This document shows, in pieces, positions 7,526 to 49,664 of a DNA stretch of 63,072 nucleotides (position 1 is its first letter; the number at the start of each line of letters is the position of its first letter). Where the stretch lies: assembly GCA_020720815.1 (NCBI GenBank), contig DYNY01000005.1, positions 1 to 63,072 on the forward strand. Reading direction: 5' to 3'. The DNA is from Candidatus Elulimicrobium sp. GTDB lineage: Bacteria > Patescibacteriota > Minisyncoccia > Phycocordibacterales > UBA918. A program made the position numbers and the translations under genes. Below the pieces are notes generated by a model. It worked only from the letters and a program-made list of their open reading frames with translations, made no database searches and was not told the DNA's origin.

Positions 7526-8110
7526 ATGCAAAATCCCAAAAATATTGTGCTGTTGTGTGGGCATCCCGATACAGATTCTTTCAGTGCTATGATGACCGAT
7601 CATTATCAAGCCGGAGCTGAAGATGCAGGACATACTGTATCGCGAGTCAATATTGGTGAACTACACTTTGACCCGGTTTTACATAAGGGTTACAAAGAAA
7701 TACAAGCTCTAGAACCTGATTTGATTGAGTTACAAAATAAGTTTTTAGCAGCTGACCATATTGTAATTGTTTACCCAAATTGGTGGTGTACTATGCCAGC
7801 TGTATTGAAAGGTCTATTTGATAGATTTTGGCTACCTGGTTTTGCTTTCAACATAAACAAGGAAACTAAAAAAATTGACAGGCACTTAAGTGGCAAAACT
7901 GGTCGAATAATAATTTTATCCGGGTTACATAGCCCTTTCATGACTTGGTGGAAATTTGGTGATTTTACTAACGAAATTCAATACGGCATCATGGAATTTT
8001 CTGGTATACGAACTGAAGTAACAGCTTTCGGTCCTTCAGAAAAAGTAGACGAAACAACGCGAAATAAATGGCTGAAAGAAGTAGAAAAATTAGGTAAAAA
8101 AGGTCTCTAA
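7526..8110 (+). CDS. flavodoxin-like NAD(P)H-dependent FMN oxidoreductase (quinone reductase/KefF-MdaB-like)
   Basis: 194-aa ORF; N-terminus IVLLCGHPDTDSF plus YPNWWCTMPAVLKGLFDR is typical of the Flavodoxin_2 family. Confidence 0.7.
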   Translation: MQNPKNIVLLCGHPDTDSFSAMMTDHYQAGAEDAGHTVSRVNIGELHFDPVLHKGYKEIQALEPDLIELQNKFLAADHIVIVYPNWWCTMPAVLKGLFDRFWLPGFAFNINKETKKIDRHLSGKTGRIIILSGLHSPFMTWWKFGDFTNEIQYGIMEFSGIRTEVTAFGPSEKVDETTRNKWLKEVEKLGKKGL

Positions 8111-47794: not shown

Positions 47795-47822
47795 TTGACC
47801 AAGGCATAAAAGTCTGTATAAT
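47795..47822 (+). promoter_or_regulatory. near-consensus sigma-70 promoter of the aspS leader
   Basis: TTGACC (47795-47800), 16-nt spacer, TATAAT (47817-47822). The predicted start near 47829 coincides with the base of the leader's first helix. Confidence 0.6.
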
Positions 47823-47829
47823 GACCTCA

Positions 47830-48075
47830 TACCGCTGATGTGGCTGACACCACTGAGGTGAGGGAGGAAAGCAGAGTGAGGCTTATTTTGCCACAACTTA
47901 CTGAAACGTAGTCGCTTGGCAAGGAGCGAAAGTAAGCTACGGCAAAAAGCCGTTTTTACACCTGTCAGTAGAACCCTCCGCCTTGCGCCCGACAAAGCGC
48001 AAAAGAGCGCCCACACTGCATACAGTGGGGAAGTAGGGTGGCACCGCGGATAACTCCTTAAAAATTCGCCCCTAC
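47830..48075 (+). promoter_or_regulatory. T-box riboswitch leader (candidate tRNA-Asp specificity) upstream of aspS
   Basis: AGGGUGGCACCGCGG at 48035-48049 matches the T-box core. The antiterminator is A1 guaggg (48033-38) / cccuac (48070-75), a 7-nt bulge UGGCACC, and A2 gcg/cgc. A stem III-like hairpin lies at 48011-48030. At the 5' end a kink-turn plus hairpin (47830-47860) has loop CUGACA. The region is markedly more G+C-rich than its flanks. Confidence 0.8.
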
Positions 48076-48311
48076 AAACCAAGATGAGAAAGATATGAAA
48101 TTCATTTTTTAGCCTTTCGAGTCGAAGGTTTGTATGATTTTTTCATACAAATACTTTATTTATTAGAATAATCTATCTGTAGGGGTGAAAAGCTTGGGAA
48201 GCTTTTCAAGGGGTTGTTAAAGCATTTATGAAGTAATGAAAAAATACTTAACGACCCGAACAGCTTCTGTAAGAAGATTCTCGTTTCTCAGATTTAATTA
48301 AGTAAAACATT

Positions 48312-49664
48312 ATGACTCGCACCCTTATCGGCACACTCAAAAGTGAAGTGGAGAAGGAAGTAACTATTCAGGGCTGGGTAGACGTATCTCGCCAACAAGG
48401 TAAGATGGCTTTTTTTGATTTTCACGATCGCTCTGGCAAAGTTCAAGGAATAGTTTTTGGTAAACCAGAAGTACTTGAAATAGCACAAAAATTGAAAGCG
48501 GGCTATGTGGTAGAAGTGACCGGCAACGTCCATTCCCGACCGGAAAAAATGCGTAATGAAAAATCAGAAAACGGAGACATCGAGCTAGAGGTAACCAAAA
48601 TAGAAATCATTAGCGAAGCTGAACCAGCTCCCTTTGATATGGACACCGAGCTCAACCTTGATACCTTGCTTGATTATCGTCCCATCACTCTACGGAGGGA
48701 TCATGAACGGGCTATCTTTAAAGTTCAAGCTGAAATTTTGGTTGCATACCGAAATTTCCTAAACAGTGAAGGGTTTACCGAATTCCAGGCGCCAAAGCTA
48801 GTGGGAGGTGACGCTGAGGGAGGAGCAGAGGTATTCAAGGTAAAGTATTTTAAAGGCGTAGAGGCTTCACTAGCCACTAGTCCACAGCTATACAAGCAAA
48901 TAATGGCTGGGGTATATGAGCGAGTATTTGCCGTTGGGCCAACTTTCCGTGCTGAGAAAAGTGCCACTACCCGTCACCTGTCAGAAATCTCAATGCTGGA
49001 TTTAGAGATGGCTTTTATCAAAGACCATACTGATGTAATTTCGATGGTAACCAAGCTAATGCGCGCAATAGTAGAACACGTAAATAAGGCTTGTGCGGCT
49101 GAAATAGTCTTACTAGATATACCCCTAGCTTTAACCCCTGAAGCTTTTCCGGTCATGACTTTGCGTGAAGCCCAAGCACTAATCAAGAAAGAGACAGGAG
49201 TGGATAAAACGACCGAACCAGACCTTGAGCCAGAAGACGAACGCTTCCTTTGTGACTACGCCAACAAAAACCTTGGCTCCGACTTTGTTTTCGTTACGCA
49301 TTTCCCGACCAAGAAGCGCCCCTTCTACACCCACGTCGACCCAGCTTGTCCAGAATTTACCAGAAGTTTTGACTTACTCTTCCGTGGACTCGAGATGTGT
49401 TCTGGTGGCCAACGTGTCCACCGGTACGAAGACCTGGTACAAAGAATCAAAGATAAAGGACTAGACCCAGATAAATTCTCATTCTATCTCCAAGCCTTCA
49501 AGCACGGTATTCCACCTCATGGCGGTATTGGCATGGGCTTAGAGCGCCTTACGGCTAAGCTTTGTGGAGTAGTAAACGTTAAGGAAGCTACGCTTTTCCC
49601 GCGTGATATTAACCGTATTGACACCTTTACGAGCAAAGAGCAAAGTACGGAAGCTGAGATTTAA
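48312..49664 (+). CDS. aspS: aspartyl-tRNA synthetase, archaeal/eukaryal-type (short form without the bacterial GAD insertion)
   Basis: 450-aa ORF with an N-terminal OB fold (QGWV...R..G...F..F.D.SG.VQ); class II motifs FRAEKSATTRHLSEISMLDLEMAF and GGIGMGLERL. Confidence 0.9.
   Translation: MTRTLIGTLKSEVEKEVTIQGWVDVSRQQGKMAFFDFHDRSGKVQGIVFGKPEVLEIAQKLKAGYVVEVTGNVHSRPEKMRNEKSENGDIELEVTKIEIISEAEPAPFDMDTELNLDTLLDYRPITLRRDHERAIFKVQAEILVAYRNFLNSEGFTEFQAPKLVGGDAEGGAEVFKVKYFKGVEASLATSPQLYKQIMAGVYERVFAVGPTFRAEKSATTRHLSEISMLDLEMAFIKDHTDVISMVTKLMRAIVEHVNKACAAEIVLLDIPLALTPEAFPVMTLREAQALIKKETGVDKTTEPDLEPEDERFLCDYANKNLGSDFVFVTHFPTKKRPFYTHVDPACPEFTRSFDLLFRGLEMCSGGQRVHRYEDLVQRIKDKGLDPDKFSFYLQAFKHGIPPHGGIGMGLERLTAKLCGVVNVKEATLFPRDINRIDTFTSKEQSTEAEI

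Follow-up and report, generated by a model that had tools for sequence, protein, structure and literature searches.

A probable T-box riboswitch with an ultrashort Stem I ahead of archaeal-type aspS in Patescibacteria

How is an essential aminoacyl-tRNA synthetase placed under feedback control in a reduced genome that mostly lacks Shine-Dalgarno (SD) sequences? The question is raised by the leader of aspS, the aspartyl-tRNA synthetase (AspRS) gene, in a 63,072-nt stretch of Candidatus Elulimicrobium sp. (contig DYNY01000005.1), hereafter the window. The original prediction, made from the letters of this stretch, described the leader as a T-box riboswitch in which a very short Stem I, built of a kink-turn (K-turn) and a hairpin, presents the Asp codon GAC. 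We consider it highly probable, judging from sequence comparison, that positions 47830-48076 are a T-box sensor of uncharged tRNA-Asp that controls aspS; in relatives this sensor appears to be coupled to a terminator, whereas its output in the window is uncertain. The features are listed in Table 1.

A probable tRNA-Asp sensor ahead of aspS

At gathering thresholds, Rfam gave no match in the window or in the loci of 20 relatives, and the identification as a T-box therefore depends on homologues, not on Rfam. A protein search of genome and metagenome collections with AspRS returned 160 loci, the closest labelled records being mostly metagenome-assembled genomes (MAGs) named Paceibacteria, Parcubacteria or Patescibacteria. 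One locus (L081) is an identical 3.7-kb Joint Genome Institute (JGI) contig; the next-closest full-length relatives are 84-85% identical in AspRS, and fragments with partial proteins reach up to 94%. Of the 160 loci, 43 have the T-box core AGUAGGGUGG[C/U]ACCGCG ahead of aspS, and every core-bearing locus that reaches far enough upstream has the Stem I hairpin. When the window was searched with a covariance model built from 25 relatives with the window left out (R1), a single, full-length match was obtained at 47830-48076 (108 bits, E = 2.9e-32; seed members score 88-119 bits). The same model finds 45 other leaders upstream of aspS, most of them in Patescibacteria MAGs or unlabelled metagenome contigs; a weak match inside a coding region (L023, 2125-2231) was set aside as a false positive. 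The lack of Rfam matches would favour a chance resemblance without any riboswitch, but the recurrence of the leader in 45 other loci, the compensatory changes in six of its seven helices and the E-value of the family model leave that reading with next to no probability.

The 5′ module of the sensor was compared across 38 distinct Stem I sequences. RNAalifold returned exactly the proposed structure, with 98.5% of cells paired and compensatory changes in 5 of 7 pairs, compared with 23-51% pairing in controls in which the 3′ partner was shifted. The 4-bp helix occurs as GUGG/CCAC, GCAG/CUGC, GCGG/CCGC, ACAG/CUGU or CCGG/CCGG, and the C-stem covaries among ACC/GGU, GCC/GGC and GCU/AGC. The arrangement of C-stem, 3-nt bulge and G.A/A.G order is conserved, and little or no variation is seen at the G, A, G and A of the K-turn or at the G, A and C of the loop. 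The base after GAC is A, the purine expected next to a specifier, in 35 of the 38 modules (A47849 in the window), whereas L001, L005 and L082 have U or C there. All 38 modules end in a loop of 6-9 nt, and the distal AG bulge and distal loop, i.e. the interdigitated T-loops that bind the tRNA elbow, are absent from all of them.

One distant relative is informative with regard to the specifier. In an unclassified MAG (L073, 2761-2990; AspRS 39% identical to that of the window), a leader of the same architecture precedes an archaeal-type aspS; its bulge is UGGC, its terminator runs into U8, and its loop CAAACA puts AAC (Asn) where GAC stands elsewhere. This is the codon of the second tRNA substrate of the enzyme, and such a change is the behaviour expected of a true specifier. 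Since the enzyme is non-discriminating and also charges tRNA-Asn, the leader in the window could itself sense tRNA-Asn and not tRNA-Asp, a reading with which the AAC of L073 and the NCBIfam name of the window's product, aspartate--tRNA(Asn) ligase, agree. However, GAC, not AAC or AAU, is the triplet of the window and of every one of the 38 distinct modules of its clade, which makes this reading very improbable. GAC also occurs in another hairpin loop (CCGACAAA, 47989-96) but was rejected there as the Asp codon; this is the F-box-like loop of IIA, where relatives have CGAUA, CGAAA or CGUUA.

The remaining helices were examined in an alignment of the 27 members that contain Stem II (the window and 26 relatives), with the variable distal part of Stem II cut out. 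Pairing reaches 93.6% of cells over the whole sensor, compared with 40-54% in slid controls, and compensatory changes were found in 17 of its 28 pairs. All five pairs of the Stem II base covary (98.5% paired). In the pseudoknot, IIA is 88.9% paired, its third pair alternating between UA (11 members) and GC (9), and all four IIB pairs are compensatory, with 66% of cells paired in a region of poor alignment register. The antiterminator helices A1 and A2 are 99.4% and 100% paired, respectively; the 3-bp A2, which varies on one side only, is the single helix of the seven without compensatory changes. Stem III occurs at the matching position in most relatives, in a stretch where the alignment is out of register. 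As the variable bulge base after UGG, most loci have C and five have U, and either can pair with G; bacterial tRNA-Asp carries the discriminator G73. In one relative (L084, 1400-1412) the bulge reads CGGCACC in place of UGGCACC, a change at the base that pairs with A76 of the tRNA, which may reflect natural variation or an error of assembly.

By these comparisons, the S-turn Stem II and the IIA/B pseudoknot follow the K-turn directly in the window and the 26 relatives, which is the arrangement of the ultrashort class known from actinobacterial ileS, and the leader of the window has every part of a T-box except the distal two-thirds of Stem I. The main elements of the original prediction were recovered with the homologues in hand: a T-box identity, the K-turn hairpin presenting GAC, the missing distal platform, a Stem III-like hairpin (proposed at 48011-48030), the antiterminator with its 7-nt bulge, covariation upstream of aspS in relatives, and the likeness to the ultrashort class. 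It had overlooked the S-turn Stem II and the IIA/B pseudoknot in the sensor, and the terminator and two insertions in the platform.

The distal part of Stem II (47870-47966, 97 nt in the window) is variable, with a length of 10 to 128 nt among relatives. An extension core, GUAGUCGCUUGGCA(A/G)G(G/U)AGCG, is common to the window (47870-47966), L001 (1296-1393) and L005 only and matched no known motif. Relocation of the elbow platform into this extension was considered and rejected, given the restriction of GUAGUCGCUUGGCA to these three loci and a local Rfam search without a match to distal Stem I.

Table 1 Features of the aspS leader in the window and minimal leaders of relatives (positions in the sequence named)
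Feature	Sequence	Position	Strand	Components	Basis
Sigma-70-type promoter	window	47795-47822	+	TTGACC-16-TATAAT	11/12 consensus matches
Ultrashort Stem I: K-turn, 4-bp helix, terminal Specifier loop	window	47831-47859	+	ACC-GCU-GA-U-GUGG-CUGACA-CCAC-U-GA-GGU; C-stem ACC/GGU, 47831-33/47857-59; 3-nt bulge GCU, 47834-36; sheared pairs G47837.A47856 and A47838.G47855, then U.U pair; helix GUGG/CCAC, 47840-43/47850-53; 6-nt loop CUGACA, 47844-49	homologue alignment, RNAalifold
Specifier (Asp codon)	window	47846-47848	+	GAC, followed by A47849	GAC in 38/38 distinct modules
Stem II	window	47860-47978	+	base helix GAGGG/CCCUC, 47860-64/47974-78, from the first nt past the K-turn; S-turn strands AGGAA, 47865-69, and AGUAGAA, 47967-73	base helix covariation, fold
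Stem IIA/B pseudoknot, H-type	window	47979-48002	+	IIA 47979-81 with 47989-91; IIB 47985-88 with 47997-48000; F-box-like loop CCGACA (CCGAUA or CCGUUA in relatives)	covariation
Stem III hairpin	window	48010-48030	+		centroid structure
Antiterminator with T-box sequence	window	48033-48075	+	A1 GUAGGG/CCCUAC, 48033-38/48070-75; A2 GCG/CGC, 48046-48/48067-69; bulge UGGCACC, 48039-45, with UGGC at 48039-42; T-box conserved sequence AGUAGGGUGGCACCGCG, 48032-48048	Rfam alignment, family model, pairing counts
5′ arm of terminator-homologous helix	window	48065-48076	+	overlaps 3′ strands of A2 and A1	minimum free energy fold, alignment with 5′ arm of relatives
Insertion 1, 73 nt, in terminator loop	window	48079-48151	+	flanked by direct repeats TACAAA, 48073-78 and 48146-51	alignment
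3′ arm of terminator-homologous helix	window	48178-48189	+	core CUGUAGGGGUG, 48177-87	minimum free energy fold, alignment
Insertion 2, ~88 nt, self-folding, between 3′ arm and conserved U-rich tract	window	48189-48276	+		alignment, fold
Conserved element: U-tract of relatives and strand 4	window	48277-48292	+	AUUCUCGUUUCUCAGA	conservation, minimum free energy fold, cognate versus swapped pairs
aspS, regulated gene; 450 aa, archaeal-type non-discriminating AspRS	window	48312-49664	+		NCBIfam models
Minimal leader	L024	1991-2091			
Minimal leader	L015	1237-1345			
Minimal leader	L104	956-1070			
Minimal leader	L096	1318-1436			
Minimal leader	L012	564-685			
Minimal leader	L020	2521-2648			
Minimal leader	L021	2515-2667			
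Minimal leader	L107	1004-1127			
Minimal leader	L017	2782-2940			

The expression platform in relatives and in the window

In relatives, a hairpin of 15-23 bp takes its 5′ arm from the 3′ strands of A2 and A1 (AAUCGCCCCUaC...) and is followed by at least 5 U within 9 nt in 28 of 33 distinct sequences; the hairpin of L106 is called a terminator by an independent scan as well. This layout, in which hairpin and antiterminator compete for one strand and a U-run comes next, points to intrinsic termination, relieved by uncharged tRNA-Asp, as the output of the family. Between the end of the helix and the AUG lie 23-43 nt, no SD is present, and the predicted accessibility of the start region (−10 to +15) is 0.66 vs. 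0.62 depending on whether the terminator 3′ arm is free, which argues against sequestration; sequestration of the start codon was accordingly rejected. These features indicate transcription attenuation, not SD sequestration, as the probable output in relatives, in which the SD-occluding translational output of the ultrashort class appears to be lacking.

By homology with the solved complexes of ileS T-boxes with tRNA, the transcript would open with a K-turn and a 4-bp hairpin, the terminal loop of which would offer GAC to the GUC anticodon. With no platform to bind the elbow, the codon-anticodon duplex would presumably be held by the S-turn of Stem II and the IIA/B pseudoknot. The uncharged NCCA end may then be captured by Stem III together with the UGGC bulge, stabilising the antiterminator. 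As the 3′ strand of the antiterminator doubles as the 5′ arm of the terminator, binding of uncharged tRNA-Asp would be expected to relieve termination.

Beyond the U-run of the terminator lies a pyrimidine element, CGUUUCUC..., that is also seen in relatives (e.g. L009, 2745-2760) and resembles a weakened terminator 5′ arm. In the clade of the window it reads CGUUUCUCAGA. The element can pair with the terminator 3′ arm, and the two vary together (UCUG/CAGA, GUGGAG/CUCCAC, GUAGGG/CCCUAC, UUCGGAG/CUCCGAA and UUUGUAGG/CCUGCAAA). Cognate pairs of arm and element have a mean energy of −10.3 kcal/mol compared with −8.1 kcal/mol for swapped pairs, and none of 5,000 permutations reached the cognate value, although relatedness among the sequences inflates this test. 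In the window, the corresponding pairing (48281-92 with 48176-88) spans insertion 2. The element could lock the read-through conformer.

These matched changes, and the survival of the pairing across the insertion, also speak for a translational or post-transcriptional reading. On that reading the long helix serves as a sequestrator, or a relay of four strands, running from the antiterminator through the terminator 3′ arm to the conserved CGUUUCUC element, which lies some 20 nt ahead of the AUG, alters the region where translation of an SD-less mRNA starts. Such control would agree with precedent, as every ultrashort Stem I T-box described so far is translational (bioRxiv 10.1101/2023.02.28.530422; PMC7583486). 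However, the distance of the helix from the AUG, the lack of an SD to hide and the near equality of predicted accessibility between states, with a difference in the wrong direction in the window, all speak against it, as does the U-run directly after the helix in 28 of the 33 relatives. We therefore hold translational control to be improbable and favour termination in relatives.

The window departs from this pattern. Its minimum free energy fold without tRNA contains the 12-bp terminator-type helix (48065-76/48178-89) and not the antiterminator, and two insertions, which are absent from the leaders of all aligned relatives (the ten closest), interrupt the platform. As copies of a repeat or mobile element the insertions were rejected, since no second copy was found in the window or 161 loci. 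With the U-rich tract displaced and no U-run right after the stem, classical termination is doubtful in the window, and attenuation is probably weakened or rewired there, to judge from the layout of the sequence. The riboswitch may either still work through a modified platform or have been disabled recently.

Changes of the platform were observed elsewhere, with insertions in or just after the terminator in L003 (2929-2990), L097 (1425-1490), L083 (1384-1470) and L089 (1298-1380); the terminator 3′ arm is lost in L089, and the inserts of L003 and L097 lie ahead of the U-tract. Across the family, change falls repeatedly on the expression platform, whereas the sensor is conserved.

The copy in the window might thus be disabled or decaying, the insertions having uncoupled the stem from the U-tract so that read-through is constitutive, or a new promoter within insertion 1 driving aspS. 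Several features are compatible with such decay, namely the restriction of the insertions to the window, the lack of a U-run after the 3′ arm, the damaged platforms of other lineages (L089, L003 and L097), and a weak promoter-like sequence in the terminator loop (TTCATA-16-TAGAAT, 48142-48169, 9 of 12 matches). However, sites with 9 of 12 matches are expected by chance at 3.8 per 2 kb; the sensor, scoring well within the range of the seed members, has no sign of decay; and both insertions lie in loops, such that the 2:3 and 3:4 complementarities are kept. Disablement is in our view a possible but rather unlikely explanation, and a T-box that senses tRNA-Asp and controls aspS is preferred.

Several points nevertheless weigh against that preferred interpretation. 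According to the review literature, transcriptional T-boxes generally need a long Stem I (PMC7583486, section 6.2), and an ultrashort form coupled to a terminator is unexpected. The bases next to the terminator stem of the window are GAAAAGCUU and not U's, the U-rich tract lying about 90 nt further on, and the third IIA pair is a C.C mismatch. No tRNA-Asp or tRNA-Asn genes were found in the window or in the collected Patescibacteria loci, and the GUC anticodon and G73 of the cognate tRNA are presumed. The evidence is computational throughout, from sequence and predicted structure. Finally, in a permissive local scan RF00230 matched 47892-48076 with 27.2 bits only (gathering threshold 93; E = 4.8e-4 in a search of 701 nt) and set Stem I at 47892-47925, off the true hairpin. 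Put to this family, the T-box assignment of the original prediction stood in part: the 3′ half of the alignment, with the T-box sequence and the antiterminator, is convincing, and the 5′ half is not. The Stem I placed there by Rfam was rejected, as the stretch belongs to the distal, variable portion of Stem II.

Described T-boxes and the minimal leaders of Patescibacteria

Translational T-boxes with an ultrashort Stem I were reportedly described for actinobacterial ileS by Sherwood and colleagues in 2015. Examples are those of M. smegmatis, M. tuberculosis and N. farcinica, with structures available as PDB 6UFG and 6UFM (PMC7583486). The class has been identified mostly in Actinobacteria (PMC7583486), and, according to a 2023 paper, all ultrashort T-boxes regulate ileS (bioRxiv 10.1101/2023.02.28.530422); in this class, Stem II with its pseudoknot is viewed as a compensating tRNA clamp (PMC7583486, sections 4 and 6.2). 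The leader described here resembles the actinobacterial ileS class in its 5′ K-turn, short helix, Specifier in a terminal loop and lack of a double-T-loop platform, and in the S-turn Stem II and IIA/B pseudoknot that come directly next, followed by Stem III and a UGGN discriminator sequence. The position of the codon is similar as well, about 17-19 nt from the inferred transcript start in the window and nt 16-18 in N. farcinica ileS (PMC7583486, section 4). In contrast to that class, the gene is aspS, the specifier is GAC (AAC in one relative) and not AUC, the hosts are Patescibacteria with largely SD-less genomes, the platform of the relatives is a hairpin with a U-run and not an SD sequestrator, and some relatives have no Stem II altogether. 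Thus, gene, specifier, phylum and expression platform all differ, and these are what is new here relative to the ultrashort class.

A T-box on an archaeal-type aspS is not in itself new. In Clostridium, such genes (L064, L070 and L076) have a canonical leader with a long Stem I that matches RF00230 with 111-127 bits, compared with 27 bits for the window; GAC is visible in L064, the sole alignment shown. The Clostridium leaders, which belong to class I of RF00230, share with the window the UGGN T-box sequence, the mutually exclusive antiterminator and terminator, the K-turn, the Stem II S-turn, an F-box-like pseudoknot, GAC followed by A, and regulation of archaeal-type aspS. The window differs from them in lacking the Specifier internal loop, the AG bulge and the distal loop, with about 80 nt of Stem I missing. 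The novelty claimed by the original prediction for a T-box on an archaeal-type AspRS is therefore lost to Clostridium but stands for the phyla concerned, in that no paper on a T-box in Patescibacteria, the candidate phyla radiation (CPR), Parcubacteria or Saccharibacteria was found in the limited literature collection searched. In several Clostridium loci (L064, 2619-2960; L067; L070; L076), the core of another T-box follows some 90 nt further downstream, and these leaders may be tandem T-boxes.

At least nine relatives lack both Stem II and IIA/B, with a gap of 23-63 nt between Stem I and the T-box sequence (minimal leaders, Table 1). L024 also lacks Stem III, and many of the minimal leaders carry an extended A2 hairpin instead. 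L012, L015, L020, L021, L024, L096, L104 and L107, which have no Stem II or IIA/B and in which a linker joins Stem I to Stem III or the antiterminator, resemble T-boxes of the glyQS type; however, glyQS keeps a long Stem I with an elbow platform, whereas the minimal leaders have neither platform nor Stem II, and the window keeps Stem II. Tentatively, we propose that Patescibacteria might well hold an undescribed class of T-boxes in which an ultrashort Stem I with the specifier in its terminal loop drives co-transcriptional termination, cut down in at least nine lineages to about 100-125 nt.

If the minimal leaders work, the tRNA would be recognised by a three-base codon hairpin and the discriminator alone. 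This would contradict both the need for an elbow platform in transcriptional T-boxes and the need of a truncated Stem I for Stem II, and would imply a helper, e.g. a protein that binds the K-turn, or slow polymerase kinetics. A long Stem I has been argued to be necessary for sufficiently fast tRNA binding in transcriptional T-boxes (PMC7583486, section 6.2), and an aspS family with GAC or AAC specifiers and hairpin/U-run terminators offers a direct test of this rule. No natural T-boxes would be smaller than the relatives without Stem II, which would make these attractive in structural studies and in the engineering of tRNA sensors. For riboswitch specialists, the main interest lies in the coupling to a terminator and in these minimal relatives. 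TBDB restricted its short-Stem-I model to Actinobacteria and to T-boxes previously found with the Rfam model (PMC7778990); given that scope and the scores of the family below the Rfam threshold, leaders of this kind are probably missing from riboswitch censuses of candidate phyla.

The aspS locus and its neighbourhood

The promoter had been proposed along with a transcript start at about 47829, and its position places the start 1-2 nt before Stem I. This assignment is strengthened by an identical promoter 8 nt ahead of Stem I in L001 and by the conserved position of −10 boxes across the leaders of relatives. The downstream open reading frame (ORF) is, as predicted, an archaeal-type aspS, with 482 bits against NF003483 (cutoff 353) and 378 bits against TIGR00458 (cutoff 368). 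The claim that the core genes essentially lack SD sequences agrees with our count as well, an SD-like motif being present ahead of only 5 of the 53 ORFs of at least 120 aa in the window; none was found before the window's aspS.

The gene order in the window is trpS, a 154-aa ORF without a family match, the T-box and aspS. In three other Patescibacteria loci (L091, L099 and L022), aspS directly follows trpS across a short spacer without a T-box, so the riboswitch is patchily distributed. Small ORFs of 73-128 aa lie between the terminator and aspS in L020 (2698-2997), L021 (2726-3004), L023 (2774-2995), L028 (2659-2997) and L104 (1112-1498). They were rejected as a single family, being unrelated to each other and to the 154-aa ORF of the window; in those genomes the riboswitch would control a unit of two genes.

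Many ORFs of the window have a −10-like box, TAnnnT, 7-12 nt 5′ of the ATG (e.g. those with starts at 7526, 14369, 19066, 24096, 30030, 31290, 37279, 41045, 46331, 49740 and 52518). This suggests that leaderless mRNAs may be common in the source genome, in which case the aspS leader of about 480 nt would be an exception.

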